From: Gammaproteobacteria bacterium
GTDB taxonomy: Bacteria > Pseudomonadota > Gammaproteobacteria > Eutrophobiales > Eutrophobiaceae
DNA length: 64,000 nucleotides
NCBI GenBank assembly: GCA_965116495.1
Contig: OZ220696.1
Span: 1,920,001-1,984,000 of the forward strand
Direction: 5' to 3'
Shown: positions 25,924-37,706 of the stretch, piece by piece
How the letters are laid out: every line of letters starts with the position of its first letter
Position numbering within the stretch: the first letter of the stretch is position 1
Translations under genes and position numbers: made by a program
Notes under the pieces: model-generated
The model's database searches: none
Told to the model about the DNA's origin: nothing
The model's input: the letters and a program-made list of their open reading frames with translations, nothing else

Positions 25924-28263
25924 TCACACAACTGACACCGGTTCCGGCCTGGCCATGCGGTAGCCGACCGCGCGCACGTTCTGGATGTAGACCGGCAGGG
26001 CCGGGTCATCACCGAGCTTTCGGCGCAGTTGCTTGACAAAGGTACGGACCCGGTCCTGGTCGCCCGATTCAGGACCGTTCCATAGTTGGCGGATCAGCGA
26101 GTCGTAACTGACTACGCGTCCCGCGTTCACCGAGAGGATGTGCAGCAGCTCGTATTCGGTAGCGGTCAGATCTACCGGGCGGGCGGCCATGGTCACCCGC
26201 CGCTGCTCGTACTGGATGGCGAGGTCGCCGAGTACGAAGGGTTCCAGTTCGGTGCGCCTGCGCAGGGCAGCACGGACCCTCGCCGTCAGTTCCGTCGCCG
26301 AGAAGGGCTTGACGATATAGTCGACAGCGCCCTGTTCCAGCGCCTTGGCGATTGTCTCGTCCCGGCCATAGGCAGAGATGAAGATGACTGGAGTGTCGGC
26401 GATCTCCGAGGTACTTTGCATGATCTCGATGCCGTCGGCGCCGGGGAGGATCAGGTCAAGCAAGACCAGGTGGGGCTTCTGCGCCTGAATGATCCGGGGC
26501 AACTCGTTGTAGTCACCGGTCACAATCGGGGAGTAGCCGGCCCGATCCAGTGCGTCGCGAACGAAGCGGAGTATCTGCGGGTCGTCATCCAGCACCAGGA
26601 TGGGCGGGCGCTCGCTTCCCTGCTGGGAGGGGCGGTATTGATCACGAACGCCGCCGGCCTCTTCGGCTACCGGAATCGTGAAAGTGATTTGTGTCCCCCG
26701 GCCCGGCCCGTCGCTGTGCGCCTGGATGCGGCCTCCGTGGGCCTCCACCAGCCCCTTGCAGATGGCCAGCCCCAGACCGCTCCCGCGCCTGTCATCGTCG
26801 CTGAGGATCGTGTACTTGCGGAACAGGCGCGGGAGTTGCTCCGACGGTATCCCTTCACCCTCATCTGTGACCGTGACTGCCACGTGCAGGCCCTCGCGTA
26901 ACCCGGCGACCCGGATAGGAGAGGTACCGAGAGAGAACCTGGAGGCATTGGAAAAGAGGTTGCTCAGCACCTGTACGATGCGCCCCCTGTCGGCGAGCAC
27001 ACGGGGCAGGTCCTGCGGAAGGTCGATCAGGATCGTGTGCTTGCTGCCGCCGCTCAGGAAAGCATTCCTTGCCTGGTCCACCAGTGCGGCCAACTCGACA
27101 GGCGCTGGTGAGACGGACAGTGTGCCCGCGTCGATGCGGCCCGCGTCCAGGAGGTCGCTGATCAGGCCGCGCATGTGATCGGCCTGCTCATCGATGATGC
27201 GAAAGAACTGGTTCACCTCGCCCGGGTCCAGCGCAGAAGAGGCATCCAGCAAGGTGGTGGTCGAGCCCTTGATGGCAGCGAGCGGCGTGCGTAACTCGTG
27301 GCTGACCATGCCCAGGAACTCCGCCCGCAACCTGTCCAGTTCCTCCAGTTGCGCCAGGTCCTGCATGGTGACCACCACCGAGTCGACTTCGCCCTGTGCG
27401 GAACGGATGGGCGTGACGTTGAGCAAGGTGGTGACGCTCCTGCCGTCAGGAACCGATAGCACGACTTCCTCGGCGCGCATGGTCTCGGCTGTCGTTAATG
27501 TTTGTACGCCCGGATACTCGCTCAACGATACCTCGCGCCCATCGGTGAGCCGGCACGTGATCACCTCAATCAGTTCCTCCATGGACTTGCCCGGCATGCG
27601 CAGACCTTCGCCAATCCGGTTGGCCTCCCGGTTGAACGATACCGGCATGCCGGTCCTGGCGTCGAACACTACCACGCCCACCGGCGAGGTCTCCACCAGG
27701 GCCTCGAGGTCGGCCCGCGCCCGCTGCTCGTCGCGGTGCGTGCGGGCATTGGCGATGGCCGTCGCCGCCTGTGACGCGAACAACACCAGCACCTCTTCGT
27801 CCTGGTCCGTGAACGCCTGCCCGCTTTCCTTACCGGCGAGAAAGAAGTTGCCGACATGCATGTCGCGACGACAGATCTGCGTGCCCAGGAAGGTCTCGGA
27901 CAGAATCAGGTCCTCCGAGTAGCCGAGCGAACGGATATAAGTGGACAGGTCTGCCAGCCTCACGACTCCCGACACATCGCGCAAGTGTTCAATGAGCCGC
28001 GGGGTATCGGGGTTTTGCTCGAATTTTTGGTGCTCTTCGCCGGTGAAGCCGGAACTCACGAAGTCCTGGATTTCCCCGCTTTCTCCATAGGTGGTGATGA
28101 TGCCGTAGCCGGCACCGGTCAGGGCGCGGGCGCTGTCCACCACCTCCTGCAGGACGGTGTCAACGTCAAGGCTCGCGCTGATACGCAGGATCGCCGCACT
28201 CAACTGCGAGAGCCGCTCCTGCAGCGCCTCGAGATCCCGCGTATTTTCTTTGCGATCAACCAT
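25924..28263 (-). CDS. Soluble hybrid regulator: GAF-PAS-HisKA-HATPase-receiver-OmpR-type winged helix
   Basis: GAF (FTDQDEEVLVLFASQAA), PAS, H-box SHELRTPL, G2 box GSGLGL, receiver (LDDD, LLDL, KPF), C-terminal LTATEYELL...NVRAVGY; no transmembrane helix. Confidence 0.9.
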   Translation of the reverse strand: MVDRKENTRDLEALQERLSQLSAAILRISASLDVDTVLQEVVDSARALTGAGYGIITTYGESGEIQDFVSSGFTGEEHQKFEQNPDTPRLIEHLRDVSGVVRLADLSTYIRSLGYSEDLILSETFLGTQICRRDMHVGNFFLAGKESGQAFTDQDEEVLVLFASQAATAIANARTHRDEQRARADLEALVETSPVGVVVFDARTGMPVSFNREANRIGEGLRMPGKSMEELIEVITCRLTDGREVSLSEYPGVQTLTTAETMRAEEVVLSVPDGRSVTTLLNVTPIRSAQGEVDSVVVTMQDLAQLEELDRLRAEFLGMVSHELRTPLAAIKGSTTTLLDASSALDPGEVNQFFRIIDEQADHMRGLISDLLDAGRIDAGTLSVSPAPVELAALVDQARNAFLSGGSKHTILIDLPQDLPRVLADRGRIVQVLSNLFSNASRFSLGTSPIRVAGLREGLHVAVTVTDEGEGIPSEQLPRLFRKYTILSDDDRRGSGLGLAICKGLVEAHGGRIQAHSDGPGRGTQITFTIPVAEEAGGVRDQYRPSQQGSERPPILVLDDDPQILRFVRDALDRAGYSPIVTGDYNELPRIIQAQKPHLVLLDLILPGADGIEIMQSTSEIADTPVIFISAYGRDETIAKALEQGAVDYIVKPFSATELTARVRAALRRRTELEPFVLGDLAIQYEQRRVTMAARPVDLTATEYELLHILSVNAGRVVSYDSLIRQLWNGPESGDQDRVRTFVKQLRRKLGDDPALPVYIQNVRAVGYRMARPEPVSVV

Positions 28264-28469: not shown

Positions 28470-29609
28470 ATGACTTCAGAATCAGGCACATCCGCCGGCT
28501 TATCGGAGCCCCCCGTTCTGGTCACCGGCTCTGCCGGGCACGTAGGCGCCAACCTCGTGCGCAGGCTGCTCGACGACGGCATCCGGGTACGGGTGTTGCT
28601 GAGACACGAGGACAACAACGAGGCATTGGAAGGACTCGAAGTCGAACGCACGTTTGCTGACATCCGGGATCTGGATGCCACCCGGCGCGCACTGGAAGGC
28701 TGCCAGGGCGTTTATCACGTAGCAGCCAAGATCTCAACCATCGAAGGCAACCACGCCCATCGCCGCGAAGTATTCGAGTGCAATGTCCTCGGTACCCGCA
28801 ACGTGCTGCAGGCTGCGCGGGAGGCGGAGGCCGGCCGGGTGGTGGTGACGGGATCATTCAGCGCGGTCGGTTATGACCTGGATGACCCGTCGGCGCCCAG
28901 TGACGAGACCATGCAGTTCTACCCCATGGAACGCACGATGCCCTACGAGCGCAGCAAGACACTGGTCGAGCATGAATGCTGGCGCGCCGCGGCAATGGGG
29001 CAGGATGTCATTGTCGCCACCTGTTGTGCCGTAATCGGGAGCGCCGATTTTTTCCCCTCGCGCCTGGGCAGGACCTTGTGCGACTACACCAACGGCAAGC
29101 TCCGTGCTTACGTGGATGGCGGTTTCGAGTTCGTCGCGGCGCGGGACATCGTCGAAGGACACCTGTTGTGCATGCGCCATGGACGCCCGGGCGAAAAGTA
29201 CATCTTCAGCAGCGAGTACAAAACCATTTCCGAGATCCTGGACCTGTACGAGGAGGTCTCGGGCATCCCGCGACCGCGCAGGCGGATACCGATCCCGATG
29301 ATGCTCGTCTTCTCGGAGGTGGCGAGCTTTTACCTGAGCCGGTTTCACCCGGGTTTCAACCAGCGTTTCACCCCTGGCGCCATCCGCCTGTTGAAAAAGT
29401 GCCGCCACGCCAACATCGACAAGGCGAAACGGGATCTGGGCTACCAGCCCACCAGTATCCGCGCCGCGGTGCACGAGGCCTATGCGTTCCACTACCAGCG
29501 CAACGCGATCAGGAACCCGCGCGCGAAACGCCCGTACGTTGACGCCGTGAGTCAGCCGGAAACTCTCAATCCGGGCCAGGGTATCCAGGTATCTACCGAA
29601 GGGGCTTGA
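28470..29609 (+). CDS. 3beta-hydroxysteroid dehydrogenase/decarboxylase-like extended SDR (SdmB-like)
   Basis: TGSAGHVG, YHVAA and YERSK. The sterol function is inferred from cluster context. Confidence 0.72.
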   Translation: MTSESGTSAGLSEPPVLVTGSAGHVGANLVRRLLDDGIRVRVLLRHEDNNEALEGLEVERTFADIRDLDATRRALEGCQGVYHVAAKISTIEGNHAHRREVFECNVLGTRNVLQAAREAEAGRVVVTGSFSAVGYDLDDPSAPSDETMQFYPMERTMPYERSKTLVEHECWRAAAMGQDVIVATCCAVIGSADFFPSRLGRTLCDYTNGKLRAYVDGGFEFVAARDIVEGHLLCMRHGRPGEKYIFSSEYKTISEILDLYEEVSGIPRPRRRIPIPMMLVFSEVASFYLSRFHPGFNQRFTPGAIRLLKKCRHANIDKAKRDLGYQPTSIRAAVHEAYAFHYQRNAIRNPRAKRPYVDAVSQPETLNPGQGIQVSTEGA

Positions 29610-29610
29610 T

Positions 29611-30696
29611 ATGAACCCGGCATCATGTGCGCCACCCGGCTTCGATGAAGCCCGCACCCTGCGCCAGCAGGCGCGGGCCGCGGGCATGGACCCGGATTAC
29701 TGGTACGCGGTCGAGGAAGTGCGCCGGGTTAAACCGGAGACCGTGGTCGAGATTGTTTTCTGGAAGCGTTCCATAGCCCTGTACCGGGCGAAAGACGGCT
29801 CGTTTCACGCTATGGATAACCGCTGTGCGCACCGGCAACTCAAACTTTCCCTGGGCGATGTGCAGGGTTGCCGGCTGGTGTGCGCCTACCATGGCTGGGA
29901 GTATGATGAAAACGGGGTCCCCTACAGCCGGTCCGGGCAGGGCCTCAGGAACCTCGCGCTGAGGACCTATCCCATACAGGTCCGCTACGGCCTGGTCTGG
30001 CTGTTTCCCGGGGATCCGGAGCGGGCGCGGCAGCGCGAAATCCCGGATATTCCTGAACTCGAAGGCCCATCCCGGTGGGCCTGTGTACCGCTGAGCTTCA
30101 CCTGGTCAGCGCACCACTCGATGGTGATCGACAACGTCAGCGACTTCACCCACGCCCACCTGCACCGCCGCTACCGCCCCTTTGACGATGCCACCCTCAC
30201 CCGCTGCGAGACCGACGGCGACAACGTGCATCTCGCCTACGACACGCAAGTCGGGCGCGGGCCCGTCTCCAGGCTGTTCGTCGACCACAACCGTATCGAC
30301 ACCAACCACATGGAGCTTTGCTACCAGTACCCCTACCAGTGGTCGAATACCGATGACGAGATAAAACACTGGCTGTTTGTGCTACCCATCGATGAACGCA
30401 CCACCCGGGCGTTTTTCCTGTTCTACTTCCGGTCGCTGAAAATCCCCGTTCTGCCGGTGAGGATCCCCCGGTTCGCCATGACCACGGTTATGAAGATTTC
30501 GAACCGCATGCTTATCGGCCCGTTACTCAGCCAGGACGGCGTTGCGGTCGAGGCGGAGCAGCAGGGGTACGAGAGGCACTGGGATGCCCCTCCCTTCGAG
30601 TTCAACCCGGTCGTCAAGGCTTTTCAGGATGTGACCGTGCGCAAGTGGCGGGAACACCTGGCGCGCACAAACGGGAGCGGTGATGCCGGGGCCTGA
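29611..30696 (+). CDS. Rieske oxygenase, putative sterol C-4 methyl oxidase (SdmA-like)
   Basis: CAHR...CAYH and DNVSDFTHAHLH; starts 1 bp after the SDR stop, inside the sterol cluster. Confidence 0.72.
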   Translation: MNPASCAPPGFDEARTLRQQARAAGMDPDYWYAVEEVRRVKPETVVEIVFWKRSIALYRAKDGSFHAMDNRCAHRQLKLSLGDVQGCRLVCAYHGWEYDENGVPYSRSGQGLRNLALRTYPIQVRYGLVWLFPGDPERARQREIPDIPELEGPSRWACVPLSFTWSAHHSMVIDNVSDFTHAHLHRRYRPFDDATLTRCETDGDNVHLAYDTQVGRGPVSRLFVDHNRIDTNHMELCYQYPYQWSNTDDEIKHWLFVLPIDERTTRAFFLFYFRSLKIPVLPVRIPRFAMTTVMKISNRMLIGPLLSQDGVAVEAEQQGYERHWDAPPFEFNPVVKAFQDVTVRKWREHLARTNGSGDAGA

Positions 30697-31783
30697 GCCG
30701 CACTTTCTGTTGTCCGCGCTGTCCGGCGCCGCCCTGCTCAAGGCGGCGGCTATGCTGCTGGTGTTTACCGGCGGGTTGTTCCTGGGTTCCATGCTGCTGC
30801 CCGGACGCCGGATTGCCGGGACGGACCTGGAGGGAACACCACACGAATACAGGCTCAACGGCCTCGCCCTGTTCCTGGCAACCGTGATTGCGGCAGGTCT
30901 CGTCCAGGTCTCCGGCTGGTTCTCACTTTCCACGTTGTATACCCACTTTGCCGCCTTGTTCGTGGCGGCCAACGTACTTGCATTTGCGCTTGCCGCCTGG
31001 CTGTATTACCGGGCCGCCCTGACCCGGGACTCAGCGCCGGGAATCCGGCCGAGCTTCTTCTATGGCGTGGAGTTCAATCCAACCGTGCTCGGGGTGGATT
31101 TGAAGCTTTTCAGCTACCGCCCGTCCCTCATCGGCCTGGCGCTGTTCAACGCATCGTTCGCCGTAGTGCAATACGAGACCTACGGCGGGCTGACCCTGGC
31201 AATGGCGCTGTACCAGGTCTTCACCTTCTGCTACGTGCTCAACTACTTCCAGTTCGAATACGGCATGACCCACACCTGGGACATGGTCAGCGAGCGCTTC
31301 GGCTGGATGCTGATCTGGGGGGACTACGTGCTGGTGCCGTTTTTCTATTGTCTCGCCGGCTGGTGGCTGGTCCACGCACAGCAACCGCTGTCTCTAATCG
31401 CCACCGCGGCGATCGTCATGTTGTTCATCATTGGCTTCTGGCTGTTCCGCGGCGCCAACGAGCAAAAACACCGCTTCAAGCGCAATCCCGGCGTGTCGAT
31501 CTGGGGACAACCCGCCCGGTCGCTGGACGGGCGCCTGCTGGTCTCCGGATTCTGGGGGATCGGACGGCATCTCAACTATACCGGTGAGATCTGCATCTAC
31601 CTCGCGTTCGCCCTCACCACGGGGTTCGGATCCTGGGTGCCTTACCTGTTGCCCGCGTGGCTGGCGCTCCTGTTGTGGCATCGCTCAAAACGTGACGATC
31701 GCCGCTGCCGCGCCAAGTACGGCGAACTGTGGGGACGCTACACGCAGCGGGTGCGGTATTCAATGCTGCCGTATGTCTACTAA
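30680..31783 (+). CDS. ERG4/ERG24 family sterol reductase (probable delta14 reductase)
   Basis: FYGVEFNP, ERFGWMLIWGD, LLVSGFWGIGRHLNYTGE and RDDRRCRAKYG; multi-transmembrane protein. Confidence 0.9.
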   Translation: MMPGPEPHFLLSALSGAALLKAAAMLLVFTGGLFLGSMLLPGRRIAGTDLEGTPHEYRLNGLALFLATVIAAGLVQVSGWFSLSTLYTHFAALFVAANVLAFALAAWLYYRAALTRDSAPGIRPSFFYGVEFNPTVLGVDLKLFSYRPSLIGLALFNASFAVVQYETYGGLTLAMALYQVFTFCYVLNYFQFEYGMTHTWDMVSERFGWMLIWGDYVLVPFFYCLAGWWLVHAQQPLSLIATAAIVMLFIIGFWLFRGANEQKHRFKRNPGVSIWGQPARSLDGRLLVSGFWGIGRHLNYTGEICIYLAFALTTGFGSWVPYLLPAWLALLLWHRSKRDDRRCRAKYGELWGRYTQRVRYSMLPYVY

Positions 31784-31789
31784 CCCGCA

Positions 31790-33199
31790 ATGTCACAGCA
31801 ATCCGACAGCGTAGCCAGCCTGCATTCGGTGCAACCCCCGCCGCGGGCGGCAACAGCCGTTCCCTTGATCGGGGGCGGATGGCCGTTAATCGGCCACCTG
31901 CCGGGCTTCCTGAAGGATCCGGTCTCGATGTTGAGCCGCGGCTGGCGCGAACAGGGTGAACTCGTCCGGTTCCGTATCGGTCCCCGTAATTTTGTCCTGT
32001 TCACCGGACCCGAGGCCCACGACTTTTTCTTCAGGGCGCCTGAGGATCAGCTGAACGCCAAAGCCGTCTACCAGTTTACGGTACCCATCTTCGGACGCGG
32101 CGTGGCATACGACGTCGCCCCCGCGATCATGGCCGAGCAGCTTGAGTTCCTGTACCCGGCGCTGCGCGAATCCGCGATGAACAGGTTCGCCCGCATCATG
32201 TTCGATGAGACGGACCGCTTCGCCGACTCTCTTGGCGAGGAAGGAGAAATCGACCTGCCGACGGCGATGAACGAACTCACCGTCAACATCGCCAGCCGCT
32301 GCCTCATCGGGGAGGAAGTCCGGGAGCAGGTGGACTCGGGTTTTGCCGATGCTTACCACAACCTGCAAAACGGCATCAACACCCTGGGATTTTTTCTCCC
32401 CAGGCTTCCTGTCGCAGCGCATCGAAGCCGCGACCGGGCCCGGCAAAAAGTGGCCGAGATTTTCAGCCGGGTCATGGCGGAACGCCGGCGCGCCGGGGCC
32501 CGTCCCGACGATTTCATGCAGACGCTCATGGACGCCCGTTACAAGGATGGCCGCGCCTTGAGCGACGACGAGATTACCGGGATCCTGCTGACGGTGTTGT
32601 TCGCGGGCCAGCACACGAGCGCGGTGCTGTCAACCTGGACCGGCCTGGAACTCGCGAGAGAATCGTCATACCTGGCGCTGATAAGGGACGAAATGCAGGA
32701 CGTCTACCGCGAGGAAGGAACCATGGGCCTGGCGAGCCTGAAGCGGCAGGTGGCGCTGGAACACGCCGTGCGTGAGAACGAACGGCTGCACCCGCCGCTG
32801 ATCATGCTGATTCGCAAGGTGCTCAAAGACGTGGAATACCGGGGATATACCATCCCTGCAGGCACCCTGGCACTGGTATCGCCGGCGGTCTCGCACCGGC
32901 TGCCGCACTTATTTCACGACCCGGACCGGTTCTATCCGCAGCGTTTTGCCGCGCCCGCCAGCGAAGACAAACAACACCACTACGCACTGATCGGTTTCGG
33001 CGGCGGTAAACACCGGTGCATGGGTAAGAATTTCGCCATCATGCAACTGAAAGCGATCTGGTCTGTGCTGCTCGACCGCTTCGATGTTCATCTCGACACG
33101 GCATTTCCTGCGCCGAATTACGGCAGCTGGGTGACCGGACCGCAGGAGCCTTGCCGGCTCCGCTACCGGCGCCGCACACAGGCAAGCGTGTTCCGGTGA
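31790..33199 (+). CDS. cyp51: Cytochrome P450 CYP51 (sterol 14alpha-demethylase)
   Basis: YQFTVPIFGRGVAYD (CYP51 B'/C region), LFAGQHTS I-helix, ExxR and heme motif FGGGKHRCMG. Confidence 0.9.
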   Translation: MSQQSDSVASLHSVQPPPRAATAVPLIGGGWPLIGHLPGFLKDPVSMLSRGWREQGELVRFRIGPRNFVLFTGPEAHDFFFRAPEDQLNAKAVYQFTVPIFGRGVAYDVAPAIMAEQLEFLYPALRESAMNRFARIMFDETDRFADSLGEEGEIDLPTAMNELTVNIASRCLIGEEVREQVDSGFADAYHNLQNGINTLGFFLPRLPVAAHRSRDRARQKVAEIFSRVMAERRRAGARPDDFMQTLMDARYKDGRALSDDEITGILLTVLFAGQHTSAVLSTWTGLELARESSYLALIRDEMQDVYREEGTMGLASLKRQVALEHAVRENERLHPPLIMLIRKVLKDVEYRGYTIPAGTLALVSPAVSHRLPHLFHDPDRFYPQRFAAPASEDKQHHYALIGFGGGKHRCMGKNFAIMQLKAIWSVLLDRFDVHLDTAFPAPNYGSWVTGPQEPCRLRYRRRTQASVFR

Positions 33200-36100
33200 A
33201 CGGCGTCGCTCCACAACGCTGTGACGCAGCCATCGTCGGCGCGGGTCCGGTGGGCAGCCTGTGCGCGCTTGCTCACGCACGCAAAGGCGCCCGGGTGGCT
33301 CTGCTCGAGGCAAACCCCCAGGCATCCCTGCGACTGGCGGGCGAATGGCTGCACCCGCCTGCCGTGCGGATGCTGCGCGCTGTGGGTGTCGAGCTCAATG
33401 CGCAGCACGACTACCCCACCGGTAAAGGGTTCGCGGTGTTCCCTGAAGACGGTTCGGAGCCGATAATGTTCCCTTATACCGACGGGTCGCGCGGGCTGGC
33501 ATGCGAGCACAACCTGCTCGTCTCAAGTCTGCGTGAAGCTGTCAGCAACGAGCCGAATATCGACTTTATGCTGCACGCACGGGTACGTGCGGTCGAAGAC
33601 GGACGCATCACTTTTACCCGTAACGGCACCACTGAAACCGTGACTGCCACGCGTATTGTAGGCGCCGACGGGCAGGCCTCGATCGTGCGTAAATCGCTGG
33701 GTTTATCGACCAACCCGATGATCTGCTCGCAGACGGTGGGGGTCATCGTAAAAGGGGTGAGCTTGCCGCTGGAGGGTTATGGACACGTGGTGCTTGGCGG
33801 GCCGGGTCCAATCCTCATATACCGCCTGGGAGAGGATTGCGTCCGCATTATCGCCGATGTCCCGCTGGACCGCACGACCCCCCGGGACCGAATCGGTTTT
33901 TTGTCGGACTCATATTCCGGCCTGTTGCCGGAAACCCTCAGGCCTGCGTTTGTCGAAGCGCTGCGCGCTGGAGACTTCCACGTCGCGGCCAACAAGCTGA
34001 GACCGCATGTCACGTACGGCAGCCCGCACCGGGTGCTTATCGGCGATGCGGCCGGACACTACCATCCCATGACGGCGATGGGGATGACCTTCGGTTTCGG
34101 CGATGCGCTTACGCTGGCCGGCAACGGGGATTTTCACGATTTCACCACCAGGCGCTTCCGGGCAACCCGCGCGCCGGCGTTCCTCGCCATGGGGTTGTAT
34201 GAGTGCTTTGCCGATTACCGGGCCGAGGCGGTGGCGGTCAGGCATACGATCTACCGGAGCGCCCGGGCAAGTTCCGGGTACCGCGACCAGACAATCCGTT
34301 TACTCGCCTGTGAAGACACATCGATAACCCGCCTGGGTCTGGCATTTTTCACGACGGTTGCACGCACGGTTGCCGGGCAGATACCGCGCTCCTGCGACCT
34401 GCTCGCCTGGCGCCGGTTCCGCGACATCATGCGTGCGCTGGCGGTTCGTTGCGGGTGGCTCCTGCGCAGCGTCCGGCGGCTGGCCAAGGCGAGAAACGCG
34501 GGCGTGGAAATGGACGGGCGAGTATGGGACAGCCTGGCCGGTATTTTTCTCATCTCCATGCCGGCGAAAGTCCGCGCCCCCAGGCTGGTCCGCCCGAGGG
34601 AGATTGCGCCACCCGATGCGGGTCCGGCATTGCTCAGCGCGACCGAACGCCTGATAAATCTTCAGGATGAGGACGGCGGCTGGGAAGGCGAGATGGTCTG
34701 GTGTCCCATGCTCACCGCGCAATACGTACTGCTGCACCACGTTATCGGGCGGCCGCTCGAACCCGGCCGGCGCAGGAGTGTACTGCGTTTCTTCGAACGG
34801 ACCCGCCTGGCAGGAGGCTCATGGGGTTTACACGATCACTCGCCCCCCCACCTGTTTGTCACCACCCTGGTTTATGTCGCGGCGCGATTAGTCGGTGCCG
34901 AGCGGGATGATCCGTTAATCGAGCCGGCCCGGCGCTTCCTGCAGACAGAGGGGGTTACCGGTATCCCGAGCTGGGGGAAGTTCTGGCTGGCGCTGCTCAA
35001 TCTCTACGACTGGCGCGGGGTACACGCGGTGCTGCCGGAACTCTGGAGCCTGCCGCGCCGGGTCCCGTTGCATCCCTCGAACTGGTACTGCCATACCCGG
35101 CTCATTTACATGGCGATGGCGTCGATTTACCCGCACCGGTACACGGCGCCGGTCACGCCCCTGGTCTCCTCGTTACGGGAAGAGTTATATCCCCAGGGGT
35201 TTGCCAACATCGATTTTTCCGCCACACGCCATGAATTGCGGGACGCCGACCTGTATGCGCGACCCAGCGTATGGCTCCGGGCCGGCTACGAGTTTGCGCG
35301 TCTGTTCGAACGGATTCACAGCAAACGCCTGCGCTCCCGCTGCACGGAAGAGATAATCCGGCTCATCAAATGGGAACTGCAGACAACCAGCCACACGAGT
35401 ATCTCTCCGGTCAGCGGCCTGCTCAATATCCTTTCCCTGTGGCTGCGTGATCCGGACGACGCCGACGCCGGACAGGCGCTCTCGCAACTGGATGGCTGGC
35501 TCTGGGAAGACGAGGAACAGGGAGCCCGGGTCACCGGCGCGAGAAGCGCCTCCTGGGATACCGGCTTCGCTTTGCAGGCGCTGGCGGCAGTGCCCGGGCC
35601 CGGCGAAGTGGAAAACGCTTCCCTCCGGAATGGAGCCAATTTCCTGTACGAACAACAAATCGATACTAGCTTCGAAGGGTTTCGCGAGGCTTATCGTATT
35701 GACCCCAAAGGCGGCTGGTGTTTTGCCGGGGGCTGGCACGGCTGGCCGGTTACCGACTGTACCGCGGAAGCGGTGCTGGGAATTATTGCGGCCAAGGGCG
35801 AGGCCGCGGATGCAACCGTGCTCGGCGATGCGGTCCGCTTCATGTTGCGCGGCCAGAACCGCGACGGCGGTTTCGGCAGCTACGAGGCGCGCCGCACCGT
35901 GACAGGTCTCGAGTGGTTGAACCCGGCCGAGATGTTCGGCGACTCGATGACCGAACATTCCTATGTGGAGTGCACCGCGTCCTGTCTTGCGGCGTTCGCC
36001 GCCTGCAGGGAGCACTTCCCGCAAACCACGGACCAGGCGCTGACGAGCGCCATTTCACGGGGTGACGCCTGGCTGCGCCGGACCCAGGCGGTCGACGGTT

Positions 36101-36603
36101 CCTGGCGCGGTGTATGGGGCGTTCAGTTTATCTACGGCACCTTTTTCGGGATCAGGGGTCTGCTTGCCGCCGGGGCCCGGCCCGGTGATCCGGCGCTGCG
36201 CCTGGCCTGCCAGTGGCTGCTGGAGCGCCAGCGCAGGGACGGGGGTTGGGGTGAGCACCACAGCGGCTGCACGACCGGGCGCTACGTCGCACACGAGGAA
36301 AGCCAGGTCATCCAGACCGCGTGGGCATTGATTGCACTGCTGGAGGCAAGCGATCCGAACTGGAGCGCGATTTCACGGGGCGCCCGCTATCTGCTCAACG
36401 CCCGGAACGCGGACGGGTCCTGGCCAAAACAGGACATGGCCGGGGTCTTCTTCCGCACGGCGCTCCTGGATTACGTCCTGTACCGGCAGTATTTTCCCCT
36501 GCACGCACTCGGTCTCTATGAGCAGCGGCGGCTGGCCCGGGTGGATTTGACAGCCCCCGTTCCCTCCGCCGATGTGAAACTGGCTGAAGCAGCAGGTTCG
36601 TAG
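33196..36603 (+). CDS. Squalene epoxidase-oxidosqualene cyclase fusion protein
   Basis: N-terminal flavin monooxygenase (GAGPVG, RLAGEWLHP, VGADG, GDAAGHYHPMTAMGMT) and C-terminal type II triterpene cyclase (QW repeats, PSWGKFWL, YCHTR, DCTAE at 35755-35769). Start taken at GTG 33196, a GTGA overlap with the cyp51 stop. Confidence 0.9.
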   Translation: MNGVAPQRCDAAIVGAGPVGSLCALAHARKGARVALLEANPQASLRLAGEWLHPPAVRMLRAVGVELNAQHDYPTGKGFAVFPEDGSEPIMFPYTDGSRGLACEHNLLVSSLREAVSNEPNIDFMLHARVRAVEDGRITFTRNGTTETVTATRIVGADGQASIVRKSLGLSTNPMICSQTVGVIVKGVSLPLEGYGHVVLGGPGPILIYRLGEDCVRIIADVPLDRTTPRDRIGFLSDSYSGLLPETLRPAFVEALRAGDFHVAANKLRPHVTYGSPHRVLIGDAAGHYHPMTAMGMTFGFGDALTLAGNGDFHDFTTRRFRATRAPAFLAMGLYECFADYRAEAVAVRHTIYRSARASSGYRDQTIRLLACEDTSITRLGLAFFTTVARTVAGQIPRSCDLLAWRRFRDIMRALAVRCGWLLRSVRRLAKARNAGVEMDGRVWDSLAGIFLISMPAKVRAPRLVRPREIAPPDAGPALLSATERLINLQDEDGGWEGEMVWCPMLTAQYVLLHHVIGRPLEPGRRRSVLRFFERTRLAGGSWGLHDHSPPHLFVTTLVYVAARLVGAERDDPLIEPARRFLQTEGVTGIPSWGKFWLALLNLYDWRGVHAVLPELWSLPRRVPLHPSNWYCHTRLIYMAMASIYPHRYTAPVTPLVSSLREELYPQGFANIDFSATRHELRDADLYARPSVWLRAGYEFARLFERIHSKRLRSRCTEEIIRLIKWELQTTSHTSISPVSGLLNILSLWLRDPDDADAGQALSQLDGWLWEDEEQGARVTGARSASWDTGFALQALAAVPGPGEVENASLRNGANFLYEQQIDTSFEGFREAYRIDPKGGWCFAGGWHGWPVTDCTAEAVLGIIAAKGEAADATVLGDAVRFMLRGQNRDGGFGSYEARRTVTGLEWLNPAEMFGDSMTEHSYVECTASCLAAFAACREHFPQTTDQALTSAISRGDAWLRRTQAVDGSWRGVWGVQFIYGTFFGIRGLLAAGARPGDPALRLACQWLLERQRRDGGWGEHHSGCTTGRYVAHEESQVIQTAWALIALLEASDPNWSAISRGARYLLNARNADGSWPKQDMAGVFFRTALLDYVLYRQYFPLHALGLYEQRRLARVDLTAPVPSADVKLAEAAGS

Positions 36604-36680: not shown

Positions 36681-37706
36681 ATGGCAACGCGTTTGATTAA
36701 GAATCTGGCGAGCACGGTTAACTGGCAGCATGTGGCGAAGCGCTCCAGGGGATATGTCGAGCGGTTCTCACCCACGGAACGGAAAAAACTGAAAGACGGG
36801 ACATTCGACTACATGGGGTTGACCCGGGACTACTACGACCTGGCAACCGCATTCTACGAGTACGGATGGGGGGAGTCTTTTCACTTTGCCCCGCTTTACC
36901 CGGACAAACCGTTCAAGGAGTCGATCCGGCTCCACGAGATGTACCTGGCAGACGTGCTGGACATAGAGCCGGGTATGCGGGTGCTGGATATCGGTTGCGG
37001 TATCGGCGGGCCCCTGGTCGCCATCGCCAGGCACACAAACGCCGCTATCGTCGGGCTTAACAACAACCATTCCCAGGTTGAAAAAGCGCGCGCCAGAACT
37101 GCGAATGCGAACCTGGATCCGCCGGCCGAATTTATCGTCGGTGATTTCATGCACATCGATGCGCCGGATGCGAGCTTTGACAGGGCTTATAATATCGAGG
37201 CCATGGCGCACGCCACGAGCAAGGCCGCGGCCTATGCCGAGGCCTACCGGATTCTCAAGCCCGGAGGGCTGTTCGCTTCCTACGAATGGTGTATGACTTC
37301 AAGGTTCGACCCCGCCAATGCGGACCATCAACATATAAAGCGCGAGATCATGATCGGCAATGCACTGCCCGATATCAGCACGTTTGAGGACGTTGACCGC
37401 GCGCTGGAGGAAGCCGGCTTTGAAATCCTGGTGAACGATGACTTGGCGGAGACCATCGATACCGGTGTGCCCTGGCACAAGGCGCTGGGAGCGCAGAAGT
37501 TCACGCCCCTGGATTTCCTGAAGACGCCGGTCGGGCAGCAGGTCACGGCGAAGATGCTGTGGCTGTTTGAACGCATCGGGCTGGCGCCCAGGGGTTCGCA
37601 CCAGGTCGCAACCATTCTCAACCGGGGCGCGGACGGCCTGTCGGCAGGCGGCAAACTGGGTGTCTTCACGCCCATGTATTTTACGGTGGGGCGTAAGGCG
37701 GGCTGA
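36681..37706 (+). CDS. Sterol C-24 methyltransferase (ERG6/SMT family)
   Basis: YYDLATAFYEYGWGESFHF (SMT region I), LDIGCGIGGP, IEAMAHA, LKPGG...YEW and C-terminal FTPMY. Confidence 0.9.
   Translation: MATRLIKNLASTVNWQHVAKRSRGYVERFSPTERKKLKDGTFDYMGLTRDYYDLATAFYEYGWGESFHFAPLYPDKPFKESIRLHEMYLADVLDIEPGMRVLDIGCGIGGPLVAIARHTNAAIVGLNNNHSQVEKARARTANANLDPPAEFIVGDFMHIDAPDASFDRAYNIEAMAHATSKAAAYAEAYRILKPGGLFASYEWCMTSRFDPANADHQHIKREIMIGNALPDISTFEDVDRALEEAGFEILVNDDLAETIDTGVPWHKALGAQKFTPLDFLKTPVGQQVTAKMLWLFERIGLAPRGSHQVATILNRGADGLSAGGKLGVFTPMYFTVGRKAG

Follow-up and report, generated by a model that had tools for sequence, protein, structure and literature searches.

The window analysed here, a 64,000-nucleotide stretch of a gammaproteobacterial genome that is assembled as a single contig and is 99.5% complete, carries six co-oriented genes in the order sdmB-sdmA-erg24-cyp51-[se/osc]-smt. 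The fifth of these holds a squalene epoxidase (SE) part and an oxidosqualene cyclase (OSC) part within one reading frame. The genes, and the parts of the fused gene, are:

28470 to 29609, forward strand: SdmB-like NAD(P)-dependent oxidoreductase, the equivalent of MsbA (295 bits with NF052578, below its cut-off of 600)
29611 to 30696, forward strand: SdmA-like Rieske oxygenase, the equivalent of MsbB (390 bits with NF052579, below its cut-off of 600)
30680 to 31783, forward strand: ERG4/ERG24-family sterol reductase, MsbC equivalent (the family's only match in the genome)
31790 to 33199, forward strand: CYP51 sterol 14-alpha-demethylase homologue, MsbD equivalent
33196 to 36603, forward strand: MsbE-type gene with squalene epoxidase and oxidosqualene cyclase fused (1135 aa; its GTG start and the stop of cyp51 overlap)
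33196 to 34560, forward strand: residues 1-455, the squalene epoxidase part (domains for FAD and substrate, C-terminal amphipathic helices 313-452)
34561 to 34617, forward strand: Pro/Arg-rich linker of about 19 residues, approximately 456-474 (sequence variable, length nearly fixed)
34618 to 36531, forward strand: oxidosqualene cyclase part, residues 475-1112 (residue matches to human lanosterol synthase)
36681 to 37706, forward strand: sterol C-24 methyltransferase (SMT) homologue, the equivalent of MsbF (the genome has no other Sterol_MT_C match)

The fused frame translates into 1135 amino acids with zero internal stops, and its GTG start overlaps the stop codon of cyp51 as GTGA. An upstream TTG at 33151 is an unlikely start, given this overlap and the fact that a public record of the same protein (P0002) is also 1135 amino acids long. 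Pfam places FAD_binding_3 at residues 9-308, SE at 154-308, SQHop_cyclase_N at 481-773 and SQHop_cyclase_C at 784-1109, and among solved proteins human lanosterol synthase (1w6k; phmmer 6e-133) and human squalene monooxygenase (5e-24) match best. An earlier note on this DNA had described an unbroken frame of about 1135 codons holding both enzymes, and both the translation and the Pfam assignments bear this out.

Divergent from the cluster, at 25924-28263 on the reverse strand, lies a gene for a one-chain sensor-regulator with GAF, PAS, kinase, receiver and OmpR-type DNA-binding domains. Its GC content (63.5%) is high like that of the sterol cluster, with which it may have arrived and which it may regulate. 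A promoter and terminator scan gave no excess over shuffled sequences (1 versus 3.4 and 6 versus 7.9, respectively), and no tRNA was found in the 64-kb window. At the other end of the cluster, the methyltransferase gene is co-oriented and 88-90% identical in two loci only (L001 and L002), whereas at other loci of the best-80 set described below the SMT genes show 37-49% identity and mostly lie on the opposite strand. Given this contrast, the methyltransferase gene likely has a history that differs from that of the five-gene core.

Elsewhere, the genome has a DXDD-type squalene-hopene cyclase and squalene synthase (G000, C1:4173986-4174939 and C1:3690549-3691421), and therefore the hopanoid and sterol branches would share squalene. 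There are also about 11 P450 loci. No match to the ERG2 and EBP families was found in this genome, and the control genomes were likewise all below the cut-off.

Although the earlier note implied that such a fusion was new, the fusion and its cluster are already published and are common in sponge-associated bacteria, the first of these having been reported from sponge symbionts in 2020; the gene in the window is a further copy. The accessible text of Mohanty et al. 2020 (PMC7074536) describes the msbA-F locus of a gammaproteobacterial symbiont of the sponge Melophlus sarasinorum, which those authors linked to sarasinosides and which includes MsbE, an SE/cyclase of the type found here. The six gene functions of that locus recur in the window in matching letter order (NAD(P) oxidoreductase, Rieske, sterol reductase, demethylase, SE/cyclase and methyltransferase), and squalene synthase lies outside the cluster in the Melophlus symbiont as it does here. 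The genomes are different, and the likeness to MsbE is one of gene set and architecture.

According to the accessible portions of Brown et al. 2023 (PMC10070321), homologues in which SMO and OSC are fused were trimmed, and ERG1 and ERG7 correspond to one gene ID in three clusters, which derive from an Aplysina aerophoba metagenome and from two MAGs, one of Chromatiales from Theonella swinhoei and one of Nitrospira. Within those portions, the methyltransferases alone were assayed and the fusion receives no further discussion. Gene numbers in the Aplysina and Theonella clusters run sdmB-sdmA-erg24-erg11-[erg1/7]-erg6, which is the order in the window; the SMT count differs, with one in the window's genome and two in each of the three reported by Brown et al. 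The clusters of steroid genes (CSGs) that Kelly et al. 2022 (PMC9531527, accessible text) describe from Ircinia symbionts occur in 115 of 537 MAGs from 10 phyla and comprise an ERG24-CYP51-LSS operon of about 5.9 kb with a DFR-like gene and a hypothetical gene ahead of it; horizontal transfer and an LSS omega of 0.17 were reported. The cyclase gene of the CSGs is annotated as lanosterol synthase only, the main text leaving a fusion unmentioned, and their SMT is usually on the opposite strand, whereas that of the window is co-oriented. An SE/OSC fusion was not found in the accessible parts of PMC8237579, PMC7306690, PMC12324236 and PMC12414744, and we found neither an assay of any fused SE/OSC protein nor evidence for one at the protein level in the literature searched, for which most subscription journals were outside reach. 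By comparison, the Methylococcus capsulatus epoxidase (Q603D5) and its cyclase, as well as human SQLE (6c6n) and lanosterol synthase (1w6k), exhibit the same folds and catalytic motifs on separate polypeptides.

The N-terminal half is a predicted squalene epoxidase on the basis of its motifs, its PF08491 match, its helical domain and its SQLE-like fold. It carries the flavin and substrate motifs GAGPVG, GEWLHP, DG and GD..HP, scores 81.4 bits with PF08491 (cut-off 20.1), and has human SQLE (6c6n) as the best fold match for its modelled structure (TM 0.79 over the target, 443 columns). The full-length AlphaFold2 model, made with 46 close homologues (pLDDT 59.6, pTM 0.44), was used for this half only, since its cyclase half is poor and it is uninformative on domain arrangement; the cyclase was refolded separately. 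In the model, C-terminal helices span residues 313-452, of which 365-436 are amphipathic. There is no transmembrane stretch, and the corresponding helices of human SQLE form its membrane domain, according to the accessible text of PMC6327030. Identity to M. capsulatus Q603D5 is 31% over 373 columns, with the same fold and catalytic motifs. The fused gene is the only strong epoxidase match in the genome (E 1e-23), where two weak matches occur elsewhere.

These comparisons also move the domain boundary. The earlier note ended the epoxidase near 34450 and began the linker there, which is incorrect. Alignments to proteins of 430-490 aa cover as much as 100% of residues 1-454, and because epoxidases of stand-alone length align through residue 455 and the model helices span 313-452, most of the stretch formerly regarded as linker belongs to the C-terminal helices of the epoxidase, leaving approximately residues 456-474 (nucleotides 34561-34617) as the linker proper.

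The C-terminal half is a predicted oxidosqualene cyclase, judging from its DCTAE motif, its equivalents of human H232, C456, C533 and Y503, and its two-barrel fold. Residues 854-858 (nucleotides 35755-35769) read DCTAE and align with the DCTAE of human lanosterol synthase, which confirms the earlier observation that this motif stands in place of DXDD. Numbered from the same alignment, H633, V852, D854-C855, Y896 and C926 correspond to human H232, V453, D455-C456, Y503 and C533, and V852 is thus the lanosterol-type valine ahead of DCTAE. In the accessible text of Wei et al. 2016 (PMC4919349), V453 accompanied lanosterol throughout the bacteria tested. When modelled alone, the cyclase half reaches a pLDDT of 95.9 and matches human OSC with a TM of 0.93 and an rmsd of 1.7-1.8. 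The general model TIGR01787 scores 500.4 bits (cut-off 322.7), and the squalene-hopene model scores 263.8 bits (cut-off 431.1). A squalene-hopene cyclase identity was rejected, given the DCTAE motif, the lack of DXDD and the presence of the genome's DXDD cyclase as another gene. Apart from the fused gene, the genome has no oxidosqualene cyclase match.

Both halves are well preserved among homologues. The earlier note proposed looking elsewhere for the same two-domain architecture, and both domains indeed share a frame at 80 of 80 loci, these being the best 80 of 543 genome stretches chosen by score, a choice that favours fused forms and makes the count something other than a frequency. Full length is retained at 77 of the 80, and the other three are interrupted inside a domain or truncated at the end of a contig. 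Among the 120 listed of 938 protein matches, from a search that covered lengths of 624-1987 only, all are 1113-1168 aa with both domains, and 119 are 70-80% identical to the query. In the 77 full-length homologues, G15/G17/G20, E38, D158-G159, G283-D284 and H290-P291 of the epoxidase are kept without exception, as are H633, V852, C855, Y896 and C926 of the cyclase, and D854 is present in 76. Nei-Gojobori estimates of dN/dS from 28 non-overlapping close pairs are 0.197 in the epoxidase, 0.471 in the linker and 0.135 in the cyclase, which indicates that both halves are under apparent purifying selection. Furthermore, no second epoxidase was found at E 1e-40 in any of the 42 carrier genomes searched. 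The earlier proposal of a bifunctional squalene-to-sterol enzyme is well supported, as a prediction from sequence, by the kept catalytic motifs, the purifying selection and the neighbouring sterol genes.

We consider it probable that the product is a single tethered, membrane-bound enzyme that takes squalene through 2,3-oxidosqualene to lanosterol by proximity of its two halves. Squalene would be supplied by the squalene synthase encoded elsewhere in the genome, and the epoxidase half would epoxidise it with FAD and O2. Both domains would sit on one membrane face, held close and at 1:1 by the 19-residue tether, such that the epoxide could be released into the bilayer and, by proximity, reach the tethered cyclase with no closed tunnel between them. 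The cyclase half would then convert 2,3-oxidosqualene into lanosterol, from which CYP51, the ERG24-like reductase, SdmA/SdmB and the methyltransferase might yield a C-14-demethylated, C-4-demethylated and C-24-alkylated sterol. Squalene-hopene cyclases can accept 2,3-oxidosqualene, and squalene epoxidases can epoxidise twice, which together give a reason for tethering in a hopanoid-making cell. A possible benefit is therefore that the epoxide would be kept from the genome's squalene-hopene cyclase and from a second epoxidation.

A more ambitious reading is that the epoxidase is docked in a fixed manner on the cyclase and passes 2,3-oxidosqualene straight from its pocket into the cyclase channel, which would make the protein a one-protein squalene-to-lanosterol synthase and the first case of channelling at the committed sterol step. 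We regard this as rather unlikely, though it has points in its favour. In 75 of 78 sequences the span from 455 to 488 measures 34 residues, and this near-fixed length fits an arrangement more rigid than simple tethering and counts against the proximity view; the fusion is kept across several phyla with the linker unbroken at 80 of the 80 best loci, and the epoxidase membrane helices end right at the linker. However, the linker is the least conserved part of the protein (mean identity 38%, versus 59-80% elsewhere; dN/dS 0.47), there are close relatives of stand-alone length, and split pairs occur in three genomes (G202, G273 and G364). Moreover, the fused proteins do not form one epoxidase clade. 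In a 40-row epoxidase tree, whose fused and stand-alone labels come mostly from protein length and whose outgroup sits on a long branch, the eight fusions of the sponge type form one group (SH-aLRT 90) close to proteins of stand-alone length, nine more distant fusions fall elsewhere, and a single clade of all 17 is rejected (AU p 2.7e-6), a pattern that suits easy fusion or fission of adjacent genes. The tree shows that one or the other apparently happened repeatedly and does not tell which of the two. Where loci were sampled for the sister-group epoxidases of stand-alone length, 18 of 21 proved to be fused, two were cut by a contig end and one was distant. A complex prediction for epoxidase residues 8-455 with a shortened cyclase piece scored 0.00 in two runs, but the controls likewise were not folded, and the result thus weighs for neither view. 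Should docking and channelling be true, the portability of a single gene would help explain the spread of the cluster between phyla inside sponges.

It is also conceivable, but quite improbable, that the protein is made whole and yet has one inactive half, or that its cyclase gives parkeol, cycloartenol or arborinol in place of lanosterol. The cyclase scores 729.8 bits with TIGR03463, below the cut-off of 851; its equivalent of human position 449 is His, the letter of the cycloartenol type, and its equivalent of position 381, which adjoins a one-residue alignment gap, is neither Thr nor Tyr. In the epoxidase half, human Q168 and Y195 are replaced by H53 and F79, and thus the human-type pair is absent; in human SQLE, Y195F costs >90% of activity (PMC6327030, accessible text). 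In addition, a myxobacterium with intact-looking SE and OSC made no sterol in the accessible account of Wei et al. (PMC4919349). Against this stand the purifying selection and catalytic motifs of both halves, and the CYP51 and C-14 reductase genes directly upstream. Furthermore, M. capsulatus Q603D5 has H and F at the same two sites, and the substitutions therefore look like a bacterial trait rather than decay. The separate cyclase of G202 agrees with the fused cyclase at the sites of human 230, 232, 381, 453 and 697, and its neighbouring epoxidase groups with Q603D5 at 90%. An arborinol (eudoraenol) cyclase was considered separately and rejected, as this type needs Ser 230, Tyr 232 and Tyr 697 (human numbering), and the residues here are Y631, H633 and F1086.

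The junction was also compared with contigs from four sequencing runs, three of which bridge it at the contig level. Single contigs from X1 (32549-34699) and X2 (31704-34701) show 0 differences and 0 gaps relative to the window, although these two runs come from one study and may be the window's source; a contig from X6, which represents a diverged strain from another study, covers 34169-34704 with 13 differences and 0 gaps. In X5, two contigs meet at the junction with an overlap too small to count, and one has a one-base insertion at 34949. The region 34400-34650, singled out for inspection in the earlier note, is therefore crossed gap-free by the contigs of X1, X2 and X6, and an assembly artefact was ruled out on this basis.

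The same note had named a restart at ATG 34558 as the case that would undo the fusion, and this idea fails. The codon, which specifies residue 455, belongs to the last epoxidase helix, where a terminal Ser-Met is common to many epoxidases of stand-alone length. Of 78 sequences, 58 have ATG at this codon, 17 have ATA/ATC/GTA and three have GTG/CTG, and the residue is Met in 57 of 77 homologues and Ile/Val/Leu in 20. A Shine-Dalgarno-like word precedes it in 0 of 78 sequences, and separate translation of the cyclase from this ATG was rejected accordingly. Thus, a fusion that exists only on paper, through misassembly or an internal start, is very improbable, even though Met 455 is frequent and DNA alone leaves room for internal starts, because three runs bridge the junction without gaps, Met 455 is an epoxidase residue that is not universal, and a start-type codon with a Shine-Dalgarno-like word occurs in at most 4 of 78 sequences at any of positions 440-499.

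The fusion is real and conserved, and its predicted product probably joins both enzymes of the route from squalene to lanosterol, the first sterol. If this single gene does give lanosterol from squalene, it would be a compact part for triterpenoid engineering and a natural model for the hand-over of a lipid intermediate between an epoxidase and a cyclase. It would also directly support the view that symbionts make C-24-alkylated sterols, a point of relevance to the debate over sponge biomarkers. The genome, 99.5% complete on one contig with the whole cluster, squalene synthase and the hopanoid cyclase, is a convenient source of the gene.

The host is likely sponge-associated, judging from its nearest named relatives at 95-97%. 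Distribution of the cyclase within the genus is patchy: it occurs in 10 of 22 genomes, nine times in frames of 1143-1191 aa and once at a contig edge. Across 400 genomes of the class, six gave matches; two of the five that were examined have fused genes and three have split ones, while the sixth, G063, is flagged as unpublished and counts in this tally only. These genus and class samples are less biased than the best-80 set. Homologues 62-80% identical come from Gamma- and Alphaproteobacteria, Nitrospirales, Binatia and Thermodesulfobacteriota records, and from Bryobacterales, Vicinamibacterales, Palauibacter and Opitutales records. The sterol cluster has a GC content of 62.3%, versus 54.7% for the genome (98.9th percentile of equal windows), and this excess, together with the patchiness in the genus and the spread over phyla, fits horizontal transfer.

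The split and reduced loci vary in their organization. In G202, the epoxidase gene follows the cyclase gene, with a 4-base overlap between them. In G273 (L108, 3002-8460), epoxidase and cyclase lie apart with an unrelated 242-aa gene between them, and a short sequence at the beginning of the cyclase frame recurs in another frame of the epoxidase gene, which suggests that the G273 split is a secondary break or a mis-assembly. A genome of the same family, G419, has the fused form. The fused gene is kept without cluster neighbours in L050 and L053, is present where cyp51 is absent in L015, L016 and L022, and is accompanied in L126 by erg24 and cyp51 only as pieces.

Other joined proteins were encountered as well. 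Among 25 long homologues scanned, 13 have squalene epoxidase joined to squalene synthase in 924-1194 aa (P0314, P0323, P0331, P0332, P0341, P0343, P0353, P0354, P0369, P0370, P0379, P0383 and P0384), and weak cyclase-barrel matches lie mid-protein in three of the five rescanned at a looser threshold. No DXDD or DCTA motif is shared in the middle part across 12 aligned proteins of this kind. Our literature search found no paper on such epoxidase-squalene synthase proteins; in the accessible text of Brown et al. 2023 (PMC10070321), one Sandaracinus MAG gene is the match for both ERG9 and ERG1. This three-part protein (epoxidase, middle part and squalene synthase) may be less known than the SE/OSC fusion. 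A further protein, P0318, has squalene synthase joined to a cyclase.
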